Assembly (NCBI GenBank): GCA_964462055.1
Contig: CAYWWJ010000004.1
Span: 22,008-86,007, forward strand
Length of the DNA: 64,000 nt
DNA from: an uncultured Neisseria sp.
GTDB taxonomy: Bacteria > Pseudomonadota > Gammaproteobacteria > Burkholderiales > UBA11063
Reading direction: 5' to 3'
Part shown: piece by piece, positions 10,516 to 58,002 of the stretch
Position numbering within the stretch: the stretch's first letter is position 1
How the letters are laid out: each line of letters begins with the position of its first letter
Translations under genes and position numbers: made by a program
The notes under the pieces: model-generated
The model's input: the letters and a program-made list of their open reading frames with translations, nothing else
The model's database searches: none
Told to the model about the DNA's origin: nothing

Positions 10516-10547
10516 TATTTTTTCTATTCTTTAAATTTACGTAACTT

Positions 10548-10792
10548 ACCTAAGCCATCACTTTTTTATTGAATGTTTAAATAGATAGGACAAATTATAA
10601 TTTTTTAGTGAATGATGGAGAAATATAGAGTTTGTTAATGAAGAAAGCGTAATTTGGCAAGCTGTTTGAGCGCTAGCGAGTTTTTGCCAAATAGCTTTCG
10701 AATTAATACAAACTCATATTTTGTAATCTTTGAACGTAAAAATTATAATTTATCCTATAAAAAGAGTAAATTAAAAAAGTGAGAGCTGGGGC
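10548..10792. mobile_element. family-A foldback MITE-like repeat, long form (copy 1)
   Basis: Non-coding, about 245 bp and palindromic over its whole length. The core matches the copies at 41841, 48305 and 56204. Termini: CCTAAGCCATCACTTTTTT ... AAAAAAGTGAGAGCTGGGGC. Confidence 0.85.
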
Positions 10793-10806
10793 TCTATTCT
10801 TTAAAT

Positions 10807-11601
10807 TTACACCGCAACTGGCGCTTTTATTGCTGGATACGATTCGTAATTTTCCAGGGTAAAATCATCATATTTAAAAGCAAAAATATCGCTTACTTGT
10901 GGATTAATTTTCATTTGAGGAAGCGCCAATGGCGTTCTGGATAATTGCAACTCAACCTGTTCTAAGTGATTGCTATAAATATGTACATCACCAAAGCTAT
11001 GAATAAAATCACCAAGTTCTAAATTACAAACTTGTGCAATCATCATTGTCAATAATGCGTAGCTGGCAATATTAAACGGCACACCCAAAAATACATCCGC
11101 TGAACGCTGATATAATTGGCACGAAAGTCTGTTTTCCGCAACATAAAACTGGAAAAAGCTATGACATGGCATTAATGCCATTTGGTCTAATTCACCTACA
11201 TTCCACGCTGACACAATCAATCGCCGTGAATCAGGATTTGTCTTAATTTGCCGAATTACATCGCTAATCTGGTCAATTACAAGCCCATCAGCACACGACC
11301 AACTACGCCATTGTTTACCATAAACAGGACCTAACTCTCCATCTGAATTCGCCCATTCATCCCAAATTTTAACCCCATTTTCATTGAGATACCTCGTATT
11401 CGTATCACCTTGTAAAAACCAAAGTAATTCATGAATAATTGATTTCAAATGTACTTTTTTCGTCGTCACAAGCGGAAACCCATGCGCCAAATTAAAACGC
11501 ATTTGATACCCAAAACAAGAGATTGTCCCAGTTCCAGTACGGTCAGATTTCTTAACGCCAGTAGCTAAAATATGCCGTAGTAAATCTTGATATTGTTGCA
11601 T
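10807..11601 (-). CDS. thyA: thymidylate synthase
   Basis: 264 aa. [21 protein letters not shown] and the active-site region [13 protein letters not shown]. Confidence 0.95.
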
Positions 11602-15198: not shown

Positions 15199-15275
15199 AT
15201 TTCTTTAACTTCCTTTAATTCTTTAACTATATAATTTATTTTAAAAATATCTTATCTTCCAATTTAATTTCTATT

Positions 15276-15827
15276 TTAATGATGTAACATCTTCCATCTA
15301 TCTTTCGTCAAGCGATATAAAACATGTAAGCTCAATGGATTCTCTCTAAGTAATTTAGGGTGATAAAAATCTTCGTTTTCATTATTTATCATACCAAGTT
15401 TTTGCATTACCCGCTCTGATTTTTTATTGATTTTTGCGGTTAATGCTATAATCTCATTTAAATTGAATTCATTAAAACCAATTTCTAAGCATTTCTGTGC
15501 TGCTTCAACAGCAAATCCTTGACTCCAATATTCTTTGGCAATTCACCAAGCAATTTCAATATTTGGGGTAACAGGTAAACTACTATCACAATGAATTAAT
15601 CCAACAACGCCAATAAATTGATACGTCTCTTTTAATTCACATGCATACATACTATATCCATATTGAAGAAGGTGTTGCTTTGACTTATCAATAAGTGCAA
15701 ATGATTCTTCCCTAGTTCTTACATTTGGGAAAAATTCCATTACTTCTGGATCTTGATTTAATACAACAAATGGTTCAATATCGCTATCAATCCAATCTCG
15801 CAAAATCAATCTTTCTGTTTCATACAT
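15276..15827 (-). pseudogene. GNAT (RimJ/RimL-type) N-acetyltransferase interrupted by one in-frame TGA
   Basis: The listed ORF 15543-15827 ends ...NIEIAW then TGA (15545-15543). The same frame continues without further stops: IAKEYWSQGFAVEAAQKCLEIGFNEFNLNEIIALTAKINKKSERVMQKLGM...HH, ending at TAA 15278-15276. Together the two parts give a full-length GNAT fold of about 183 aa. Confidence 0.8.
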
Positions 15828-15934
15828 ACGTAATTTTTTTAATATATTCTATTGTGCTAAATTGTTTTACGGTTAATGATGTCATTATTTGCAAATCCTC
15901 TCAGGTAAATCATATACCATTATTTTATCACATA

Positions 15935-16005
15935 ACCTGAGTCCTCACTTTTTAAAGATCCCACAAAAATGATGAGTTTGTAATTTTAGAATATGAATTC
16001 GCTCC
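15935..16005. repeat. family-A MITE fragment (one terminus plus part of the core)
   Basis: ACCTGAGTCCTCACTTTTTA followed by AAAATGATGAGTTTGTAATT, which resembles the core segment AAAATATGAGTTTGTATTAATT. Confidence 0.5.
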
Positions 16006-16063
16006 AGCATGTTATATGGTTTGCAAACATATTTCAAGCCACCAGCTTCAGCTAGATGGCGGA

Positions 16064-16880
16064 TTAATTAGCAAAGCCTACGTTACCTGAGCTTTGGTCA
16101 AATAGCACTTGGTAACTATTAAATAAGTTATTGCCAGCATTTACTTTATTTTTATCACTTTCGGTGGCAACAATTTTTTCTGCTAGTGGTAAGTCTAGTA
16201 AGCCTTGTTGTGTTGGAATTTGTGCGCTGATAATATTTTTTACCTTTCCGTCTGGGTCAAATTTAATCCAGGTTGGTAATGGAGAAAACTCAAAATTAGT
16301 TTTGTCGGATCCGCTATCAAAGATAGTATCATAAGTATCTTGTCCACTATCACTAACATCGGCATCAGTGTGGTAATAAATAACTGGTATTTGCCTATCG
16401 TTCTAACATGGAGTGGTAATAGTGGCATAAACATTACTATTAGAGCAAATATTTGATTGATTCAGTTGAGTAAGTGCAAAATTAACTATTTGTGCTGAAG
16501 ATAGTTGACCAAAAGTTAAAGTAGATTGGGCTACATTAATAAGCAACATTTGGTTATATGGATATGGTAGTTATAATTTAGCACTTACTTGATTATCCAT
16601 CTCTAGGCCTAATATTGCCTGCACATGATTACCTGGGACTAACTCTGCTGTTGTTAATATTACTGGGGTTTGGGTTTAAGAATTTAAGGTGTTACCCATG
16701 GTGGTTGGAAAACTGACACTGGCATAAGCTAATATTCCAGTGACACTGTGTGAACCACCATCATAATTAACTATTACTTCTTGAGTTGTTTTTTGTAAGT
16801 TGGGTCCAACATATGATTCGTATGTTTGAGCCAACATTACTTTCTGCTCGCCAGTAGGGTAAAACCTTTCAATACAGCAC
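16064..16880 (-). pseudogene. decayed gene, aspartic-peptidase-like (pepsin-type) C-terminal half
   Basis: My own minus-strand translation gives YPTGEQKVMLAQTYESYVGP, then a frameshift at the T6 run 16789-16794. It then runs ..EVIVNYDGGSHSVTGILAYASVSF.. with in-frame stops at 16676-16678 (TAA), 16571-16573 (TAA) and 16403-16405 (TAG). The end reads ...DTYDTIFDSGSDKTNFEF...YQVLFDQSSGNVGFAN then TAA (16066-16064). The DSGS and FD...VGFA motifs resemble the second lobe of A1-type peptidases. Confidence 0.6.
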
Positions 16881-17127
16881 TACAAGTAAATATTCTACCT
16901 TAAATTTGAGGTTAACGCAAATTTTTTATGACCTTCAGAAAATGCACTTTTTAATTAGCAATATTCTTTATAATTGCTTTGCTAGTCAATTCAGTAAATT
17001 TATTTTCTATACCTTTATTAGTTAATGTATAATTACTTCTTGGTGTACAATTGCTATGAGCAGATTGTTGCGTAACAAAACTTTGCAATAAAACCAATTT
17101 TGCTATTTTATAGAGGGTTTTAAAGAA

Positions 17128-18912
17128 ATGAAGTCTACTCTCCAAAGTTGGTACTTAATTTGTTTATTTTTGTTAAATATGTTAATCATTGCTGGATGCA
17201 TCAATAGTGGACAAGCAAGTGACCCTAATAATACAGCAACTTTGGCGATAAAATTAAATCCACCGGCAATTCTAATCAATGATACCGCTACTGTTACAGT
17301 TTCTTTAGAAAGCAGTTCTGACATTACCCAAGCGGTAAAAGTTACCATAAAATCTGATAGTAAGGCGACAATATTACCAGATTATAGTTGCCAATTAACT
17401 ACTGAAAGCCCAAACTGTACTGCAATTGTTCAATCTGGATCTAACCCAGGTTCTGCAACTATTGAAGCTAGCTCAATAGGATGTGGCCCTGTGTATTCTA
17501 CTCTTAAGATATTTTTAGAGTCCCAGCCAGGAACCTTATCAATAAATGTTTCCCCTAACTTAGCTTTATTTAATGAAAGCTTGACTACTACAGTAACTTT
17601 AAATGATAGTGTAGGAATTAAAACACCATTACCAGTTATGCTTAATGGTGGCAATGATGTTATAATACCCCCCAATTATGACTGTAAATTATCTAGCTAT
17701 AGTACAGTTTGTGATGTTCCAATAAAATCCAGTACTATTTCAGGAAATTATATAATTAGTGCCAGTGCAACTGGTTATGAAAGTGCCATAACTACTTTGG
17801 ATGTAACCAACTTTAAGGTGTTATATATGCTAGAGAGTGATAATTTTATTGGTGCGTCAATTCAACCTAGCTTGTTAAAAGGTGATAGTAATACCCTTTA
17901 TGGCACCACTTATACAGGAGGAAAGTATAATTTGGGCTCAATATTCCAAATAACTACTGCAGGCGATTTTACTATTTTATATTCTTTTTATAGCAATGGT
18001 GCTGGCCCATCTTCATCTTTAATACAGGATGATCAAGGTAACCTTTTAGGTGTTACTTGCTTAGGCGGAAAATATAATGGTGGAATTATTTTTAAGTTTA
18101 TGGCGGCAACAAGTCAATTAACTAATTTAGCGTCATTTAAACCAGGCGAAACTGGTAATTGTCCACAGGGAAATTTAGTAAACTATAATGGTTCTTTGTA
18201 TGGCGTTACACTTGATGGGAATGGTACAATATTTCAATTTTCATTTAATACGCAATTATTAAGAAATTTATATAGTTTTACAGATAGTAGCGATGGTATC
18301 TATCCAGTAGGTGGGTTAACGCTCGGACAAGATGGATATCTTTATGGCATAACTGAATCTGAGGGAATTTATGATTACGGGACGATTTTTAAATTTGGTA
18401 CTGAGAGTGGTGATTTTCAGACTCTATTTTCATTTGACAATACGCATTCTAGCGGAGCAAATCCTGTGGGAGCTTTAATTTTTGGTAATGATAATATTTT
18501 TTATGGTACAACATTATTAAGTCCAAATGACACAGGTACTGTATTTTCTTTTGCTGAGAGTGGAGAAGCAATAAATTTAACTTCAACTCAGCTAGACGGT
18601 AATAATGGAGCTTGGCCTCATGCAGGACTGGTCCAAACTAATGATGGGAATTTATATGGTACAGCATTAGGCGGTGGGCAGGATTTTTACGGGGCTATTT
18701 TTAAGTTCACTCCATCTTCCGAGAGCCAGTTGTCTGGACAAATAAATTTATTATACTCATTTAATAGTGAAAATGGTGTATGTGCGCCTAGAACAAGCTT
18801 GACTGAGGATGATAATGGAAACTTGTTTGGTATAACAGGTTATTGTCTTGGACATAACAACAATCCGATAACACCGAAAATATTTGGGTTTTCTCCACCA
18901 AGTAGTAATTAA
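17128..18912 (+). CDS. surface lipoprotein: two Ig-like N-terminal repeats plus 7 tandem GloVer-type (LYGTT..GG..G.IFKF) propeller repeats
   Basis: 594 aa with a lipobox (LIIAGC). Two repeats of about 95 aa (ATVTVSLESS.../LTTTVTLNDS...) are followed by LYGTTYTGGKYNLGSIFQI, LLGVTCLGGKYNGGIIFKF, LYGVTLDGNGTIFQF, LYGITESEGIYDYGTIFKF, FYGTTLLSPNDTGTVFSF, LYGTALGGGQDFYGAIFKF and LFGITGY...KIFGF. Confidence 0.75.
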   Translation: MKSTLQSWYLICLFLLNMLIIAGCINSGQASDPNNTATLAIKLNPPAILINDTATVTVSLESSSDITQAVKVTIKSDSKATILPDYSCQLTTESPNCTAIVQSGSNPGSATIEASSIGCGPVYSTLKIFLESQPGTLSINVSPNLALFNESLTTTVTLNDSVGIKTPLPVMLNGGNDVIIPPNYDCKLSSYSTVCDVPIKSSTISGNYIISASATGYESAITTLDVTNFKVLYMLESDNFIGASIQPSLLKGDSNTLYGTTYTGGKYNLGSIFQITTAGDFTILYSFYSNGAGPSSSLIQDDQGNLLGVTCLGGKYNGGIIFKFMAATSQLTNLASFKPGETGNCPQGNLVNYNGSLYGVTLDGNGTIFQFSFNTQLLRNLYSFTDSSDGIYPVGGLTLGQDGYLYGITESEGIYDYGTIFKFGTESGDFQTLFSFDNTHSSGANPVGALIFGNDNIFYGTTLLSPNDTGTVFSFAESGEAINLTSTQLDGNNGAWPHAGLVQTNDGNLYGTALGGGQDFYGAIFKFTPSSESQLSGQINLLYSFNSENGVCAPRTSLTEDDNGNLFGITGYCLGHNNNPITPKIFGFSPPSSN

Positions 18913-21468: not shown

Positions 21469-22191
21469 TTAAGCATCTTGTCTTGTATCTGCGATAACTA
21501 TTTCGCGAATACATACATTTTGTGGCTGATTATATGCAAATACTATTGATCTTGCAATATCATCTGGATTTAAGCCTTTTTCAATAGTACTAGCTTTCCA
21601 ATTTTTATAGCCATCAACAATAGCCTTATCTGTAGTATGTGACAACAATTCAGTTTCAACAACACCAGGTGCAATAATTGTCATTCTAACGTTAGAACCA
21701 GCTATTTCTGAACGAATATTTTCTGACAAAGCATGTACGGCGAATTTAGTTGCGCAATAAGCAGCATGATCAGGGAATGTCTTACGCCCAGCAATAGAAG
21801 AAATATTAACGATCGTTCCGCTATTGCGACTAATCATGCCCGCTAGGACAGTTTTTATCCCATTTAACACGCCCATAACATTGACATTCATCATATCTTG
21901 CCATTCTACTGGACCTTGACTCACAATATTACCCAAAAGCATTATGCCAGCGTTATTTACAATCAAATCAACCTTACCAAATTTTTCTTCTGCCAAATTA
22001 ACAGCATTCTGAAAATCTACTAAATTGGTAACATCAACTTTAACACAAAGTGTATTAGGTAATTTGAGCGCCTCCAACTTATCAATTCTCCGAGCCAACA
22101 ATAATAATGGATGACCAGCATTAGATAACTGCATCGCTGTAGCGCGACCAATACCAGAACTAGCGCCTGTAATAACTACTAATTTTTTCAT
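21469..22191 (-). CDS. short-chain dehydrogenase/reductase (SDR)
   Basis: 240 aa. TGASSGIG cofactor motif, NNAG, and the catalytic YCATK. Confidence 0.85.
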   Translation of the reverse strand: MKKLVVITGASSGIGRATAMQLSNAGHPLLLLARRIDKLEALKLPNTLCVKVDVTNLVDFQNAVNLAEEKFGKVDLIVNNAGIMLLGNIVSQGPVEWQDMMNVNVMGVLNGIKTVLAGMISRNSGTIVNISSIAGRKTFPDHAAYCATKFAVHALSENIRSEIAGSNVRMTIIAPGVVETELLSHTTDKAIVDGYKNWKASTIEKGLNPDDIARSIVFAYNQPQNVCIREIVIADTRQDA

Positions 22192-25763: not shown

Positions 25764-25887
25764 ATAACTACTTAGCAACATTAAGCGTATACACGAACAA
25801 ATTAATTTTTCCCTCATGAGTTATCACAAAATCGGTAAAAATCAATTTGTTCGTGTATAATTATAACCATCATTGCTGAGTAGTTAT
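25764..25887. repeat. family-C palindromic intergenic element (about 124 bp)
   Basis: Two nested arm pairs. ATAACTACTTAGCAA pairs with TTGCTGAGTAGTTAT, and TATACACGAACAAATT pairs with AATTTGTTCGTGTATA. A related element flanks the MITE at 48269-48583. Confidence 0.7.
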
Positions 25888-29458: not shown

Positions 29459-29619
29459 ATCCCAGTCCTCACTTTTAATTTTATCTTATATTTATATAGG
29501 ATAACTTACTAATTTTTATGTTCAAAGATTACAAACTCTATATTTCTCCATCATTCACTAAAAAATTAGTAAGTTATCCTATCATATTAAAACATTCAGT
29601 AAAAAGTGAACATTGGGTT
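29459..29619. mobile_element. family-A MITE, short form (central ~90 bp missing)
   Basis: Both termini and both arms are present (ATAGGATAACTTACTAATTTTT / AAAAAATTAGTAAGTTATCCTAT). The internal junction is ...GATTACAAA|CTCTATATTTC.... Confidence 0.8.
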
Positions 29620-37448: not shown

Positions 37449-38891
37449 TTAACCTACAATCACAATCCTCAAAGATCGTACCGAAATTAATTTACGTATA
37501 TCCCCGTTGAATCCTGTGCCCACTTGTTGCCAATTTATACCATCCCAACGGGCAACATATTGTTGATTATTATTGGTGAAATCACCTGCAACATATACAT
37601 TGTTACCCGATATAGATGTTGTGTTTATGATATCATTGAATCCCGCGCCCAATTGTTGCCAATTTATACCATTCCAACGGGCGACATATCGTTGATTGTT
37701 ATTATTGATAAAATTCCCCGCTGCATATATGTTATTGCCCGCTATAGATATTGTGTTTATCATAGCATTAAGCCCTGCTCCCAATTGTTGCCAATTTAAA
37801 CCATTCCAACGAGCAACATATTGTTGATTGTTATTATTTGTAAAATCCCCCGCGGCATATATATTATTGCCTGCTATAGTTATTGTGGTTATCAGATCAT
37901 TAAATCCTGCACCCAATTGTTGCCAATTTATACCATCCCAACGGGCAACATATTGTTGATTGTTATTATTTGTAAAATTCCCTGCAACATATATATTATT
38001 GCCCGCTATGGCTATGCTGTTTACCCCATCATTGAATCCTGTACCCAATTGTTGCCAATTTAGACCATCCCAACGAGCAACATATGGTTGATTGTTATTA
38101 TTTGTAAAATCCCCCGCTGCATATATGTTATTGCCTGCTATGGTTATTGTTTCTATCCAATCGTTAAATCCCGCGCCCAATTGTTGCCAATTTATACCAT
38201 CCCAACGAGCTACATAGTGCTGATTGTTATTATTTGTAAAATCCCCCGCCGCATATAATTCACTGGTATCACGCACCAATAGCCGAAGAGCTTGAGCTTT
38301 AGTAATGACCACATTTGTGTTTTTCTTATTTTGCTGTAGTTTATTTTTTTTAATTCCCTTAACAAGCAACGTGATGGTCACATGTTTATCGCCCACAGTA
38401 CCGGTTTTATTTTTTGTATCAATTAAGCCTTTTGAAACCATTCGTATACTACATTGGGTATTATACACAGATAGTGCTATTCCATCAATACATTCTTTAT
38501 CCACATCCTTCGATGACACCTTTACTCCAAGCTTCGCAAAGCTTGATATAATATCAGGCATCATTACTTCTTCTACATCCTTATTGCTTGGATTAAATGT
38601 AAAAGTTAGTATTGAACCATGAACCTGTGTATCATTAATTGTTATTTTTAAAACTTTAGAACATTCATTCTCATCATAAACTTCATATTCATGTGTTATT
38701 ATTCCAGATAGATCATGATGTAAACTATCTGTGTAGTTCTTGTTATCCATATACATTTCTTTGATACATTTTTTATTGTATTCAGTAGAAGTTAATGGCG
38801 GAATATCGTATCCATCTGCTAAAGCAAAATCAATACTATTTAACGTTATCAGCAATATAAAAATTCGAAGGAATTTGCGACTGTATTTCAT
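37449..38891 (-). CDS. exported protein with six tandem 43-44-aa propeller-type repeats
   Basis: 480 aa with a signal peptide. The N-terminal ~200 aa are unique, followed by 6 copies of AGDFTNNNNQxYVARW(D/N)G(I/L)NWQQLGxGFNDxIxTIxIAGNNIY. Confidence 0.75.
   Translation of the reverse strand: MKYSRKFLRIFILLITLNSIDFALADGYDIPPLTSTEYNKKCIKEMYMDNKNYTDSLHHDLSGIITHEYEVYDENECSKVLKITINDTQVHGSILTFTFNPSNKDVEEVMMPDIISSFAKLGVKVSSKDVDKECIDGIALSVYNTQCSIRMVSKGLIDTKNKTGTVGDKHVTITLLVKGIKKNKLQQNKKNTNVVITKAQALRLLVRDTSELYAAGDFTNNNNQHYVARWDGINWQQLGAGFNDWIETITIAGNNIYAAGDFTNNNNQPYVARWDGLNWQQLGTGFNDGVNSIAIAGNNIYVAGNFTNNNNQQYVARWDGINWQQLGAGFNDLITTITIAGNNIYAAGDFTNNNNQQYVARWNGLNWQQLGAGLNAMINTISIAGNNIYAAGNFINNNNQRYVARWNGINWQQLGAGFNDIINTTSISGNNVYVAGDFTNNNQQYVARWDGINWQQVGTGFNGDIRKLISVRSLRIVIVG
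37500..38290. repeat. tandem 129-132-bp DNA repeats (coding, inside the 480-aa gene)
   Basis: The anchor CA(A/C)TTGTTGCCAATTTA recurs at 37521, 37650, 37782, 37914, 38046 and 38178. The units are highly similar at the nucleotide level. Confidence 0.85.
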
Positions 38892-40358: not shown

Positions 40359-41837
40359 ATGAGGGATCGTGGCTTTGGGTTAGTTGAGGTTTTAATTGCG
40401 TTATTGATTATTGGTATTGCGATAGTTGGATTTTCGCGGCTAATGTTGGCAAATATTCGAAGCGTTAGTTATGACAACACACAACAGCTGACTAGCAATG
40501 CTACACAATATATTGTAGATAAAATTAATGCGAATTTGCAATTAAACGATCAAAATGCAAGCGCACAAAATTATGTAGAAGCTAATTACAATGACGATGC
40601 AACTGTAGCAAGCGCATTATGCAATAGTGGCGTATATTGTACGTCATTACAACAAGCGCGGTCGGATTTATATCAATGGAAACAATATCTAAGCACATTG
40701 CATATTCCACAGCTACAAGCAATTGTGTGTAATGATACGCCGGATAATTATGGTATTCCTACATTATCCAGCCCGAATTGTAGCGGTGATGGCGATGTCG
40801 TTGTAAAATTAGTGTGGAGTTATTTACCATCCGCTAGCGAAAGCACATTAACCTCGAATACACGTTATATAATGATAAAAATCCCTGATGCAAAACGCTC
40901 TAATATACGCACAATGGTGGGGGATTTACGAAAAATTGATGATAGCAATATCACCAATGGCTCCAACCTCACAATTATTGACGGTCGAATGTTGTATATT
41001 GTATCAGCTAATTCCGCCACATCAGCCATGTATTCATGTGATTTATCCAGCCAGTGCACAAATTCACCACTGACAATTCATTCGGCGGTTAATCAATTAT
41101 TCACCTACAATAACAATCCAATATATACTAATGTTGGTAGTAACGTGGTTTATCAATGCAAAAATGCCAATTGTAGCACTTTATTAAGTAGCAATCTGAC
41201 TGGAAATAATTATATTTCTGCCGTATATTCTGTTGCCAACAGTGCATATGTCGTGACCGATAAAAATGTTGTTTACGTCAATAATAAATTAAACGCGGAT
41301 AACGGCACCTACGTTTCTTATGTTGATTATAACGCAAATTCATTTCAAACTGGCGCCAATTTTTTGCCAACCGCCATGACCAATATTAGTTCGCTGGTGA
41401 AAATTCCTGCATCTACAACAGATGATTCATTAAATGCTGGGACTTTGTATCTGGGGTTTAGTAATGGCAACGTATATTTGGATAAGTTGAGTGGCTCTTG
41501 TATTGACGGCGATAATTGTAGCAATGTTGTGCATACTATTACCAATACAAATTCAACATCATTAATGCAAAATGTCGTGGATCTAACCACCTACACCAAC
41601 GATACAAGCATATATCTAATCGCGGCGAATCAAAATAACATCGACACAACTATTGCGGGGCTTTATTATTTGGATACTAATAATATTGAGTCTGGTTGGC
41701 ATATTTTATGCAATGGGCTAGCGAATGGTAATGTGAATTCTGTTGCAGTAAGTGGCGCAGATGCATATTTAATGGTAGCCGGATCATCCTCTGGTGCTGG
41801 ATTATACAAATGTGGATTATCTGGAATTGGTGAGTAG
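40359..41837 (+). CDS. pilV: type IV minor pilin PilV-like with a ~315-aa C-terminal extension
   Basis: Class III signal MRDRG/FGLVEVLIALLIIGIAIVG with Glu at +5. The first ~175 aa are the size of a normal PilV. The rest contains 6-7 blade-like units (LYIVSANS..MYSCDL, VVYQCKN, AYVVTDKNVVYV, LYLGFSNGNVYL, IYLIAAN..GLYYLD, AYLMVAG..GLYKCG). Confidence 0.75.
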   Translation: MRDRGFGLVEVLIALLIIGIAIVGFSRLMLANIRSVSYDNTQQLTSNATQYIVDKINANLQLNDQNASAQNYVEANYNDDATVASALCNSGVYCTSLQQARSDLYQWKQYLSTLHIPQLQAIVCNDTPDNYGIPTLSSPNCSGDGDVVVKLVWSYLPSASESTLTSNTRYIMIKIPDAKRSNIRTMVGDLRKIDDSNITNGSNLTIIDGRMLYIVSANSATSAMYSCDLSSQCTNSPLTIHSAVNQLFTYNNNPIYTNVGSNVVYQCKNANCSTLLSSNLTGNNYISAVYSVANSAYVVTDKNVVYVNNKLNADNGTYVSYVDYNANSFQTGANFLPTAMTNISSLVKIPASTTDDSLNAGTLYLGFSNGNVYLDKLSGSCIDGDNCSNVVHTITNTNSTSLMQNVVDLTTYTNDTSIYLIAANQNNIDTTIAGLYYLDTNNIESGWHILCNGLANGNVNSVAVSGADAYLMVAGSSSGAGLYKCGLSGIGE

Positions 41838-41840
41838 AAG

Positions 41841-42085
41841 ACCACAGTTCTAACTTTTTAATTTAACTCTTTTATAGGATAATTTACTAATTTTTGCGTT
41901 CAAAGATTGCAAAATATGAGTTTTTATTAATTCGAAAGCTATTTAGCAAAAAACTCGCTAACGCTCAAACAGTTTGCCAAATTACGCTTTCTTCATTAAC
42001 AGACTCTATATTTTTCCATAATTCACTAAAAATTAGTAAGTTATCCTATTTATTTAAACATTCAATAAAAAGTGAGTGATAGCGT
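41841..42085. mobile_element. family-A foldback MITE, long form (inverted relative to copy 1), filling the pilV-pilW gap
   Basis: ACCACAGTTCTAACTTTTTA ... AAAAAGTGAGTGATAGCGT. The core matches the reverse complement of 10548-10792. It starts 3 nt after the pilV stop and ends at the base before the pilW ATG. Confidence 0.85.
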
Positions 42086-43090
42086 ATGAATATAATCAGT
42101 TTAATGGTATCAATTCTCTTAGGCGGTTTAATCGCAATGGGATTATCATCAATGTATGCTGATTTGGTGCGCTCCAAATTATTTGGCGCCGATAAACAAT
42201 TAATGACATTGCGCTATGGGACGGCGCTTAATCAACTCACTATGGATATTATGCAAAGCGGGAATTTTGGTTGCTTTAGTTCACGAATGCTTGGTAATAG
42301 TCGCTATGCACAGATTCATACTTTTGCAACTGATAGCATATTAAAATACAATACTGAGTATGCTGGGTTATATGCATTTACTTCAAATAATATTCCCAAT
42401 ATTGATAGCAATGTGTTTAATGGAGTAAATCTCCTTGCTGATTCAGATATTGTGAAATTGCAGTATGGTAGTGGACAAGCCATCGTGCCAGAATTTACCA
42501 TCAATGGTAGCAATTTCAATACACTAAGTTTTCAAATGCCACGTTATACCAATGTAACTACGAGTAATATAATTAATTCATATACTTCTGATGTATATCG
42601 CCAAGCCATTATTACCAGCACAAATATTGATGCGCCATATGTATTATCCAGTTGTAGCCGATTAGATCAAATCCAAGGCGCAACCAACAATAATAATGAG
42701 ATTTCTATTGCTAGTTATAACATTCCTGCATCGGGAAATTACGCACACGATCTGTCTAGCTTGATGCTAATGAATTTTGTCACTAAATATTATTATGTCG
42801 CCACGGAAAATGGCATTACTGGATTATATACAAAAAATCTACAGCCAGATGGAAGCCTAAGTTCTAGCACATTATTATCGGTTGGCGTAACTAATATTTC
42901 GTATAATTTTGAAGTGGAAAGTGGGATGAATCGGCAAATTAAAGCTACCTCAGCGATGATTGACCAAACTGATTGGGCAAATATTAGCAATGTAGTGGTT
43001 AATTTGACGATTCAAACAAGCGAAAGTGTCGGTTTGGCAAATGCTCCAGCGGTGCAAAATCTACAGCAATCAGTAAAAGTAAGACCTTAG
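42086..43090 (+). CDS. pilW: type IV minor pilin PilW-like, lacking a prepilin leader
   Basis: 334 aa. The N-terminus MNIISLMVSILLGGLIAMG aligns with the hydrophobic helix of PilW proteins, but there is no leader, no Gly-1/Phe+1 and no Glu+5. In-frame TGA and TAG lie immediately upstream, inside the MITE. Confidence 0.65.
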   Translation: MNIISLMVSILLGGLIAMGLSSMYADLVRSKLFGADKQLMTLRYGTALNQLTMDIMQSGNFGCFSSRMLGNSRYAQIHTFATDSILKYNTEYAGLYAFTSNNIPNIDSNVFNGVNLLADSDIVKLQYGSGQAIVPEFTINGSNFNTLSFQMPRYTNVTTSNIINSYTSDVYRQAIITSTNIDAPYVLSSCSRLDQIQGATNNNNEISIASYNIPASGNYAHDLSSLMLMNFVTKYYYVATENGITGLYTKNLQPDGSLSSSTLLSVGVTNISYNFEVESGMNRQIKATSAMIDQTDWANISNVVVNLTIQTSESVGLANAPAVQNLQQSVKVRP

Positions 43091-46146: not shown

Positions 46147-47306
46147 ATGAAAAATAAAAATGTCAATGCACCAAAAGCAGATCGAGAAATTATCTACGTA
46201 TTTCAGGGTGGTGGTGCGCTGGGCACGTATCAAGTCGGCGCATATGAAGCATTAAGTGAACATGGATATTTGCCAACAATGATTACCGGGATTTCTATTG
46301 GGTCAATAAATGCTGCAATAATTGCCGGCAATAAACCAGAAATGAGATTCAAACGCTTGTTGCAATTTTGGGATAAAATTAGCACGAAAATTCCATTCCC
46401 CATGCTTAGCGAATATGGGCTGTCGAAATTTCATCATTTTTGTAGTGCACAAAGCGCATTATTTTTTGGACAACCTGGATTCTTTACGCCGAAATCTATT
46501 AACCCATGGCTTCTACCATCAGGCACGCCCGATGAATTTAGTTTTTATAATACAGCGCCATTACGTGAAACATTGCTTGAATTAATTGATTTTAAATATC
46601 TGAATGAAAAGCATGTACGTTTATGTTTAGGCGCGGTAGATCTAGAATCTGGTGATTTTGTATTCTTTGATAGCAAAAAAGAAGAAATTACCGTTGACCA
46701 TGTTTTAGCTTCTTCAGCATTACCACCAGGGTTTCCACCAGTCTTATTAAACGGACGTTATTATGTTGATGGCGGTGTTTATTCCAATACCCCGATGAGT
46801 ATGGTGCTTGATGAGTTTGCTGATAGTGAAAGTCAAATTAAAAATGTACTGTGTTTTATGGTAGATTTATTTGCCGCAACAGGCGTATTACCACACAGCA
46901 TGGATGGCGTAATGGAACGCGTCAAAGACATACAATATTCCTCCATTCCAAAAGAACCAGCGCATTATATGCCACAACACAAAATTTATCTCATGCAATA
47001 AGATTTTTGAGTAACAAATTAACCGACAAACAAAAGCAAGAACCGCAAATAGCCGAAATAATAAAGCTTGGTTTAGCTAATAGATTGGATATTATTCGTG
47101 TAGTATATAAATCTGAACGAGGAACTGAACTTAGTAGCAAAGATTATGAATTTAGCGTAGAAAGCGCCAATAAGCACTGCGCATTGGGATATGCAAATGT
47201 GAAGCAAATGATAGCAGAAAAAGAATCGGAATGGATGGAAAAACATAGATCTGGCGTTACGGTATACAATGTGGAAGAAGAAAAGATTATGTCTTTTACT
47301 TTGTAA
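46147..47306 (+). pseudogene. patatin-like phospholipase (PatD-like, with DUF3734-type C-terminus) carrying a 1-nt frameshift
   Basis: ORF 46147-47001 has the patatin motifs FQGGGALG, GISIGS and VDGG, and reads ...ERVKDIQYSS before going out of frame. The expected continuation (..SKRTSALYATTQNLSHAIRFLSNKL...) is in ORF 46851-47306, in a different frame. The frame switch maps to about 46940-46950. Confidence 0.8.
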
Positions 47307-47308
47307 TA

Positions 47309-47433
47309 ACCACAGTCCTCACTTTTTTAATTTTACTTTATAGGATAACTTACTAATTTTTACGTTCAAAGATTACAAAACTACTTAGTTATCCTATTTA
47401 TTTAAACATTCAGGAAAAAGTGAAGACTAGCGT
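47309..47433. mobile_element. family-A MITE, short form
   Basis: ACCACAGTCCTCACTTTTTTAATTTTACTTTATAGGATAACTTACTAATTTTTACGTTCAAAGATTACAAA|ACTACTTAGTTATCCTATTTATTTAAACATTCAGGAAAAAGTGAAGACTAGCGT. It starts 3 nt after the patatin stop. Confidence 0.8.
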
Positions 47434-48261: not shown

Positions 48262-48268
48262 CAAAATT

Positions 48269-48583
48269 GTAACTACTTAATAATATTTACAATATACAGG
48301 ATAAACCTAAGTCCTCACTTTTTATTGAATGTTTAAATAAATAGGGTAAATTACTAATTTTTTAGTGAATGATAGAAAAATATAGAGTTTGTTAATGAAG
48401 AAAGCGTAATTTGGCAAACTGTTTGAGCGTAGCGAGTTTTTGCCAAATAGCTTGCAAATTAATACAAACTCATATTTTGTAATCTTTGAACATAAAAATT
48501 AGTAATTTACCCTATTAATAGAGTTAAGTTAAAAAAGTGAAGAATTTTATTCTGTATATGTGAGCGATGTTGCTGGGTAGTTA
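48269..48583. repeat. composite: family-C palindrome split by a family-A MITE
   Basis: Left half GTAACTACTTAATAATATTTACAATATACAGGATAA (48269-48304). Right half TCTGTATATGTGAGCGATGTTGCTGGGTAGTTAC (48551-48583). They pair with each other and resemble the two arms of 25764-25887. Confidence 0.65.
48305..48550. mobile_element. family-A foldback MITE, long form (same orientation as copy 1)
   Basis: ACCTAAGTCCTCACTTTTTATTGAATGTTTAAATAAATAGGGTAAATTACTAATTTTTT, then the core, then AAAAATTAGTAATTTACCCTATTAATAGAGTTAAGTTAAAAAAGTGAAGAATTTTAT. Confidence 0.85.
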
Positions 48584-48618
48584 CGTAAATTTTACACTTA
48601 ATTTAAAAGGTTTTTACA

Positions 48619-56203: not shown

Positions 56204-56402
56204 TTTTTAGTTTAGATATAAATAATTACTCATTTTGTAGTGAATGATGAAGAAATATAGAGTTTGTTAATGAAGAAAGCGTAATTTGGCAAACTGTTTG
56301 AGCGTAGCGAGTTTTTGCCAAATAGCTTCCGAATTAATATAAACTCATATTTCGTAATCTTTGAACGTAAAAATTAGTAATTATTTATATCTAAACTAAA
56401 AA
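56204..56402. mobile_element. family-A core carried between different palindromic arms (variant copy)
   Basis: The same core as at 10.5/48.3 kb sits between the arms TTTTTAGTTTAGATATAAATAATTACT and AGTAATTATTTATATCTAAACTAAAAA. The GTCCTCAC termini are absent. Confidence 0.8.
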
Positions 56403-57738: not shown

Positions 57739-57817
57739 ACCACAGTCCTCACTTTTTATTGAATGTTTAAATTTATATGATAAATTATAATTTATCTAAT
57801 AAAAGTAAATTAAGAAT
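57739..57817. repeat. family-A MITE, minimal form (terminus plus arms only)
   Basis: ACCACAGTCCTCACTTTTTATTGAATGTTTAAATTTATATGATAAATTATAATTTATCTAATAAAAGTAAATTAAGAAT. The two arms are joined directly and the far terminus is degenerate. Confidence 0.6.
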
Positions 57818-57859
57818 AAATTTTTGCATGAAATATAATATTTTACTGTATAATATTCC

Positions 57860-57967
57860 TATACTCAAACAATTTCATCATACTTGAATTCTACTACGCT
57901 CCTAACATATTATTAATAGGTGTCGTCGCTTGTATAATCAAATTATTTTGAACTAGTTTGAGTATAG
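57860..57967. mobile_element. family-B MITE-like repeat, copy 2 (inverted), upstream of ssb
   Basis: Its reverse complement aligns with 32781-32888 (..CAAGCGACGACACCTATTAATAATA(G/T)GTTAGGAGCG(C/T)AGTAGAATTCAAGTATGA..). Confidence 0.8.
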
Positions 57968-58002
57968 AAAACATTTATTTTAAATTTTGTTAAGGAATAT
58001 TA

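Follow-up and report, generated by a model that had tools for sequence, protein, structure and literature searches.

The 64-kb stretch of DNA analysed here (positions 22,008 to 86,007 of contig CAYWWJ010000004.1; hereafter the window) carries a non-coding repeat of about 200-250 bp that forms a single long hairpin and is present in about eight copies. Four long copies, three shortened copies and one fragment make up this tally, all of them intergenic and located where a preliminary description of the window, made without database searches, had placed them. Copies occur in both orientations between housekeeping genes, with sites in the aroA/thyA, pilV operon, patatin-like gene/bdhA, exbB/purD and purD/ssb spacers, and some of them exactly fill operon spacers. 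Full copies measure 199-252 bp. Within the window, the terminus AGTCCTCACTTTTT (with at most 2 mismatches) was found 10 times against 0.41 expected occurrences, the core 21-mer 4 times against 0.01, the 3' core 22-mer 6 times against 0 and the tip motif 4 times against 0. Chance is excluded as an explanation for sharing at this level. The open reading frames (ORFs) of the element are at most 61 aa long; when translated, they matched none of 5.8 billion sequences of predicted proteins, and a query made of the concatenated translated frames of the element returned no scoring match.

Anatomy and fold of the element

From the outside inward, a full copy consists of terminal repeats, asymmetric subterminal stretches, 21-bp arms and a 133-bp hairpin core. 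In case of the focal long copy (246 nt, 48305-48550, forward strand, as are all of its parts), the left outer terminal inverted repeat AACCTAAGTCCTCACTTTTT lies at 48304-48323 and is followed by the left subterminal stretch ATTGAATGTTTAAATAA (48324-48340), which is unpaired in the fold and not complementary to its counterpart on the right. The left arm ATAGGGTAAATTACTAATTTT (helix 1, 48341-48361) leads into the core (48362-48494), which forms an imperfect hairpin, has conserved bulges and carries the tip TGTTTGAG-CGTA-GCGAGTTT at 48420-48439. On the other side follow the right arm AAAATTAGTAATTTACCCTAT (48495-48515), a perfect complement of the left arm, the unpaired right subterminal stretch TAATAGAGTTAAGTT (48516-48530) and the degenerate right outer terminal inverted repeat AAAAAAGTGAAGAATTTTAT (48531-48550).

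Most copies carry the terminal consensus AACC-NN-AGTCCTCACTTTTT at both ends (the ends can also be written AACC-NN-AGTCCTCAC), and decay of these terminal repeats is ordinary, copy-specific and unmirrored. The 21-bp arms consist of ATAGGATAAATTACTAATTTT and its complement, and the core tip reads TGTTTGAG-N4-5-GCGAGTTT with fixed bulges. The two subterminal stretches are mutually non-complementary (ATTGAATGTTTAAATA on one side, AGAGTTAAATTAAAA on the other), and this asymmetry gives the composite a polarity. The orientation of the core relative to the asymmetric outer parts is identical in 6 of 6 copies and in one copy from a second species (L013a, described below). This fixed polarity indicates that the composite copies itself as a whole.

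Every long copy forms one hairpin, with z scores of -7 to -10. The focal copy forms a single hairpin of -43.9 kcal/mol as DNA (z -8.4), while its RNA fold reaches -69 kcal/mol for the forward strand (z -7.1) and -67.1 kcal/mol for the reverse strand (z -9.8). Further, the locus-specific left flank of this copy (48263-48303, forward strand) pairs with its right flank (48551-48592, forward strand) via ACAATATACAG/CTGTATATGT and GTAACTAC/GTAGTTAC, which extends the hairpin to approximately 48263-48592. These flank sequences are absent from the other copies.

Three further long copies were characterized. The copy in the aroA-thyA spacer (10541-10792, forward strand; also delimited as 10548-10792) is bracketed by a perfect 18-bp direct repeat, TCTATTCTTTAAATTTAC, at 10523-10540 and 10793-10810. 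The right-hand repeat includes the thyA stop codon, and such a repeat was seen at no other copy. The copy at 41841-42085 (reverse strand) occupies exactly the interval from pilV (stop at 41837) to the pilin-like gene that comes next (ATG at 42086) and has the most private changes of all copies, with eight in its core. The copy at 56204-56402 (forward strand) lacks outer termini and agrees with the others in its core and about 13 bp of the inner arm; its outer arms form an unrelated palindrome of 27 bp if perfect, or 33 bp at 97%.

Two of the shortened copies have lost inner core through deletion at short direct repeats, which is the usual fate of long palindromes. In the derivative at 29459-29619 (reverse strand), about 90 bp of inner core are deleted at an ACAAA direct repeat; it retains perfect arms and scores 43.5 bits with a covariance model of the core. 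A larger core deletion is found in the derivative at 47309-47433 (reverse strand), located in the spacer between the patatin-like gene and bdhA. The third shortened copy (57739-57817, forward strand) is coreless: besides an outer terminus and the left subterminal stretch, it has only one arm palindrome, GATAAATTATAATTTATC, which is of the 10.5 kb type. The fragment at 15935-16005 (forward strand) is a real degenerate copy. It retains an outer terminus and, as what is left of a deleted core, GAGTTTGTAATTTTAGAA, matching the junction at which the 29.5 kb copy has its deletion. Beside the coreless copy, the purD-ssb spacer also contains an inverted repeat of 39 bp (57856-57970, 77% complementary).

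Mirrored and one-sided change in arms and core

The preliminary description had contrasted a near-invariant core with arms in which each difference between copies is mirrored on the partner arm. The arm sequences that it quoted are correct and the contrast is real, although less absolute than it was put there. The core is not invariant, with differences of 3.0-9.6% between copies over 135 core columns (identity 90-97%), while the arms differ by 0-19% (mean approximately 12%). Among the arms of five copies, we counted five mirrored events (columns 5, 6 and 10, and two at column 14), one of those at column 14 being a deletion of 1 nt from each arm of the 10.5 kb copy. Besides these, there are three one-sided events, or five if the 56.2 kb copy and one gap are counted, so that mirroring is not without exception. 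Pairing of the arms is specific to each copy, as within-copy mismatches amount to 3 compared with a mean of 10.6 after swapping partners between copies, and only 2 of 120 permutations were as low.

Using the five-copy alignment with the hairpin as structure, both sides had changed in 6 of 25 arm pairs but in only 1 of 43 core pairs, and this sole double-changed core pair passed through G-U. Counted as events, the arms had 5 mirrored and 3-5 one-sided changes and the core stems 0 and 12, respectively (Fisher p 0.004-0.01).

Two arm types are found at more than one locus. Copies at 41.8, 47.3 and 29.5 kb carry the AACTTACT type, those at 10.5 and 57.7 kb the type that has the mirrored deletion, and a derived outer end, ACGCTA, is shared by the 41.8 and 47.3 kb copies. 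Since mirrored arm types recur at several loci, the changes predate the insertions and arose in replicating lineages, not in place. The preliminary description would have given up its account if arm differences simply tracked a few subfamilies and unmirrored substitutions were as frequent as mirrored ones. For at least two arm types, the differences do follow subfamilies (41.8/47.3/29.5 kb and 10.5/57.7 kb). This comparison is in fact ill-posed: independent mutation would bring mirrored changes close to zero, and unmirrored changes as frequent as mirrored ones would therefore still be a strong signal.

The same counts bear on whether arms are corrected after insertion. The number of one-sided arm changes acquired in place is 5, compared with approximately 8.5 predicted from the private core rate (Poisson P ~0.15), and therefore gives no sign of arm correction in place. 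Further, template switching in place should favour the inner stems because their partners are closer, whereas the inner stems are almost without mirrored change here, which is the opposite of the expected pattern. Hairpin-templated correction, one of three causes suggested in the preliminary description, is hence not required by any of these results while being compatible with them.

A related locus in a second species

A second locus (L013) was found in a metagenome-assembled genome (MAG) labelled 'uncultured Neisseria sp.' (GCA_964386295.1), whose BdhA is 76% identical to that of the window. It carries two diverged copies (L013a and L013b) with the same architecture as in the window, including outer repeats (CCGGACACTT / AAGTGTCCGG) and, flanking the core on the same side as there, a left-type subterminal stretch. 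The L013 arms are again palindromic and their sequence is unrelated to that of the window arms. One arm block differs between the two copies and is complementary in each of them (TGAGGGAGGC/GCCTCCCTCA compared with AAATGGTTAA/TTAACTTTTT).

Between L013 and the window, 9 of 33 core pairs have changed on both sides, for example from TTTGGCAAA/TTTGCCAAA to TTTGTTGAA/TTCAACAAA. In this cross-species comparison of the core, 97.4% of cells pair, a value reached by none of 500 shuffles, and shifting the partner column reduces pairing to 31-44%. The two L013 copies, which have a mutual identity of 81%, differ by eight mirrored pairs and three wobble pairs, with no pair broken. Both species have the same tip motif, bulge after AGCG and GAA internal loop. 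Pure symmetrising would erase asymmetries; that bulges and loops persist argues for a specific folded shape, together with a specific tip, as the thing preserved. Selection on the hairpin, another of the causes put forward in the preliminary description, is thus supported by stems kept through double changes and by constant bulges and tip.

In L013a (L013 3900-4240, reverse strand), a GC-rich arm block, TGAGGGAGGCTTGAT, resembles sequence immediately beyond both outer termini, AAGGAGGCTGATCTTAAT and TTGAGGGAGCTATCC. This likeness is marginal (p ~0.02 per flank), and no such likeness between arm and flank was found in L013b or in any copy of the window.

Host and distribution

The host belongs to the Neisseriales and is an uncultured, Aquella-like bacterium. 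Its LepA has 86% identity to the Aquella oligotrophica protein and 87-90% to those of Neisseriales MAGs, and the G+C content of the window, about 35%, can be compared with the Aquella genome (2.82 Mb, 36.4% G+C; PMC6612550). A Legionellales origin, suggested at first by gene content (bdhA, the patatin-like gene, pilins and many ORFs lacking a Pfam match), was rejected on the basis of these LepA homologues.

The element is patchily distributed. The core 21-mer had no match in a set of one genome per species, which places the source species outside that set, and a metagenome scan returned one real further copy, on contig L004, which carries yet another mirrored arm type; two other metagenome matches were rejected as chance matches in a coding region. 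We scanned about 650 kb of related loci with the core covariance model (R1), which matched only in the window, in L004 and in L013 (two copies). Contigs of relatives covering the lepA locus (L006, L087-L093) and bdhA loci (L007-L086) contained no further copies except those of L013, and extending the L013 contig by 5.7 kb revealed no new copy. A pattern search of viral contigs gave no match, nor did plasmid and phage records.

Element positions are not orthologous between species. The spacer between the patatin-like gene and bdhA, which holds the 47.3 kb copy, is 17-92 bp long in two relatives (L007 and L008) and contains no element there. The patatin-like gene itself is split into two overlapping frames in the window (46147-47001 and 46851-47306) and is one continuous gene in both of these relatives; the split (46147-47306) represents a frameshift or an assembly error.

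Short-read contigs of both host organisms (L001, L005, L095 and L096) end inside or at copies, which indicates that the repeats fragment assemblies of this group. Just downstream of lepA lies a 26-bp inverted repeat (25788-25859; 92% complementary, 20-nt loop). Contig L005 ends inside this inverted repeat (at about 25828), which may represent another repeat family. In relatives with approximately 90% identical LepA, type I-F CRISPR-Cas genes are located beside lepA (L087 976-7511, L088, L092 1-6300). One CRISPR-Cas-bearing relative contains a fragment of an IS605 OrfB (TnpB) gene (L090 15555-15905), and the hairpin element was found in none of these loci.

A proposed non-autonomous mobile hairpin

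We favour the reading that the repeat is a family of non-coding, non-autonomous mobile hairpin elements in which the composite is the copied unit, and assign it a probability of roughly 0.55. According to this reading, an enzyme encoded outside the window would move the element in trans and would read it as a folded single strand or cruciform. The tip and the upper stem would be recognised by sequence and shape, while the lower stem would need pairing only, and spread would require a paired stem and an intact tip. Lineages of the element could then drift in arm sequence provided that both arms change together, and changes in the core would stop propagation. Such pairing-only arms, combined with core changes that block propagation, would produce mirrored arm differences on the one hand and one-sided core differences gained after insertion on the other. 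The presence of internal-deletion derivatives is as expected of long palindromes.

A number of observations weigh against this reading. No candidate enzyme, whether a transposase, a RAYT or another, is present in the window or in the L013 locus, and a partner element sharing the ends was not seen. Pfam or NCBIfam scans found no transposase among 50 ORFs of the window and no Y1_Tnp match, bearing out what the preliminary description had said about a transposase with matching ends, and no RAYT or transposase gene adjoins any copy. There is no consistent target-site duplication, as the 18-bp direct repeat occurs at one copy only and flanking repeats otherwise amount to a doubtful 8 bp at one copy and at most 7 bp elsewhere, which is chance level. 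No two copies are identical, and with cores 3-10% apart there is no sign of recent movement. The empty sites come from different species (BdhA 78% identical) and not from strains. Further, simply copying a fixed composite accounts neither for the 56.2 kb copy, with its unrelated perfect outer arms and lack of outer termini, nor for the palindromic flanks at 48.3 kb. The counts are also small, as the arm sample comprises five full arm pairs from the window species and two from L013. Together with the 18-bp repeat of the 10.5 kb copy, the 56.2 kb, 48.3 kb and L013a cases may reflect either insertion into the centre of an older palindrome or a palindrome growing outward.

An unlikely, though serious, alternative is that the element is of the same kind and its symmetry results from copying one arm off the other and not from selection. 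Copying could take place in a folded single-strand intermediate at each transposition or through quasipalindrome template switching in place; one-sided mutations would be erased or mirrored, and the palindrome could grow into its flanks. Quasipalindrome template switching is an established bacterial mutation route (PMC7202029), which counts in favour of this explanation, as do the finding that the mirrored events include an indel besides substitutions (1 nt missing from each arm at 10.5 kb), the perfect 27-bp unrelated palindrome that surrounds a core with six private changes in the 56.2 kb copy, and the extension of palindromy by about 40 bp into the unique flanks of the 48.3 kb copy. It is at odds with the bulges, internal loops and asymmetric subterminal stretches, which have not been symmetrised in either species, and with the core stems of the window species, where approximately 12 one-sided changes and at most one mirrored pair are found although partners are closer there than in the arms. 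In addition, the one-sided arm changes are not clearly below the core-rate prediction, and the outer arms of the 56.2 kb copy show no significant homology to the standard left side (p 0.08-0.19). Between two mutations under selection and repair in a folded intermediate, the seven arm pairs cannot decide, being compatible with both.

A stronger form of this explanation, which we consider more doubtful still, is that a folded single-strand intermediate rebuilds one arm from the other, so that symmetry would be regenerated with every move and could be extended into flanks, the tip serving as a landing pad. The perfect arms of the 56.2 kb copy, the palindromic flanks of the 48.3 kb copy and the arm-flank likeness in L013a point in this direction. 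If true, the element would be a self-symmetrising mobile hairpin, neither a MITE (miniature inverted-repeat transposable element) nor a REPIN, served by a type of enzyme not yet linked to such elements.

It is improbable, in our judgement, that the core is a multi-copy structured RNA under host selection (acting in cis as a stability element or RNase III site, or as a small RNA), with selection on each transcript maintaining the pairing and the outer repeats serving only as the vehicle. Strong covariation, conserved unpaired nucleotides and a fixed tip are typical of functional RNAs, several copies lie inside operons and would be transcribed, and both Correia elements (PMC2649163) and bcr1 (PMC3184786) act at the RNA level. 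G-T wobble cells also outnumber A-C cells on the strand shown (9 compared with 4), a difference that is not significant. Set against this are the mixed orientation of copies relative to neighbouring genes (two sense, four antisense, one between divergent genes), promoter or terminator signals at shuffled level, and the non-orthologous positions and element-free related spacers described above. Copies furthermore tolerate stem-breaking changes and large core deletions, and no Rfam family matched at gathering score. The Rfam search of the window gave no matches, and the best relaxed match was rli22 with 18.1 bits compared with a threshold of 80 (E = 1.5).

Similarly improbable is that the core and about 13 bp of inner arm form a separate mobile module that inserts at palindrome centres, with the arms being older targets, which was the third cause named in the preliminary description. 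Single cases fit it: the 57.7 kb copy resembles an unoccupied outer element with an intact central palindrome, the 56.2 kb core sits in a different palindrome, the 48.3 kb composite lies at the centre of ATATACAG|CTGTATAT, and the L013 arms are palindromic while being unrelated to those of the window. For the standard copies it is disfavoured, as independent landings in a symmetric target would not give the one core polarity seen throughout; mirrored variation is also present inside the shared 13 bp (column 14), a deletion between the 12-bp AAATTATAATTT repeats on either side of a 10.5 kb-type core would explain the 57.7 kb copy equally well, and the question of mirrored change would merely be moved to the target family.

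Relation to known element families

With regard to classification, the repeats form a new family within a kind of small mobile DNA already known from bacteria and do not represent a new kind of system. The term MITE-like foldback family, used in the preliminary description, is a fair one. Like MITEs, the element is small and non-coding, has many copies at unrelated sites and carries shared terminal inverted repeats (AGTCCTCACTTTTT at both ends of copies), but a fixed-length target-site duplication was not found.

REPINs are moved by RAYT transposases, proposedly as folded single strands, and compensatory changes across the hairpin are reported to be common in them (Bertels and Rainey 2011, PMC3116915). 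The element resembles them in being non-coding, intergenic and multi-copy, in forming a hairpin over the whole unit that is kept by compensatory changes, and in lacking a target-site duplication. The distribution of conservation is reversed, however. REPINs conserve two outer REP ends with a compensated spacer inside, whereas here the tip is conserved, the lower stem is variable and the outer ends decay. REPINs are also shorter (about 70-110 bp compared with 200-250 bp) and do not have the separate outer terminal inverted repeats of this element, whose window contains no RAYT gene. We therefore rejected an assignment to REPINs by definition, based on conservation at the tip instead of the ends and on the lack of a RAYT.

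The bcr1 repeat of the Bacillus cereus group (about 155 bp) is MITE-like, maintains a double-stranded structure through compensatory changes and has a distribution that is not conserved between related strains (PMC3184786). Its 5-bp flanking direct repeats and known transcription have no demonstrated counterpart here, the host phylum differs, and the likeness is one of description. By analogy, the logic of a stem that needs pairing only would be the one already proposed for REPINs (PMC3116915), and the element would resemble bcr1 (PMC3184786).

Correia elements (CREE/NEMIS) of Neisseria are small intergenic inverted repeats with a conserved core, deletion length variants and repeat variants relevant to symmetry (PMC2649163). 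They occur in the same bacterial order and likewise have no known transposase. They differ in length (104-157 bp, in classes of 104-108 or 153-157 bp, compared with 199-252 bp), in their TA target duplication, which is absent here, and in their non-hairpin interior. Four published Correia patterns (TATAG[CT]GGATTAA...; PMC2649163) had no matches at up to 5 substitutions, and we rejected a kinship hinted at by TATAGG, as arm-to-repeat alignment scores were within the shuffled range.

Integron attC sites are recognised as folded single strands, and their structure and extrahelical bases are conserved while the stem sequence is free. The element shares with them a conserved structure with free stem sequence; it differs in that there are no cassette arrays and copies lie in both orientations between housekeeping genes. 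Core sites of the attC type were rejected, since only two copies have GTTRRRY in their right subterminal stretch and no RYYYAAC partner was seen by eye. A sigma-54-like TGGCA-N-TTGA in the core was likewise discarded, its GG not being conserved in L013.

To our knowledge, hairpin-forming repeats are common in bacteria, and for most of them neither the recognised part nor the enzyme is known. The family described here separates two requirements, with tip and bulges being fixed in sequence across two species and the stem being pairing-only and covarying. This makes the picture of a recognition module concrete and testable. It also provides a stem-tolerant search pattern, ATTTG-N6-TGTTTGAG-N4-5-GCGAGTTT-N5-6-AAATAGC, or as a search string ATTTGNNNNNNTGTTTGAGN{4,5}GCGAGTTTN{5,6}AAATAGC. 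Further, the family shows the persistence and decay of a 200-250 bp near-palindrome in a small, AT-rich freshwater Neisseriales genome and explains assembly breaks at such sites in these organisms. Should the symmetry of the arms come from copying and not from selection, it would represent a natural system for palindrome formation.

Other features of the window

No tRNAs were found in the window. The region that holds the degenerate fragment (15199-17127, about 1.9 kb) contains no ORF of at least 100 aa and precedes a 594-aa ORF with six GloVer (Gloeo_Verruco) tandem repeats (17128-18912). Six tandem 132-bp repeats (37507-38255, 81-88% identical) lie inside another ORF (37449-38891, reverse strand), whose product shows weak matches to beta-propeller repeats (DUF5122).

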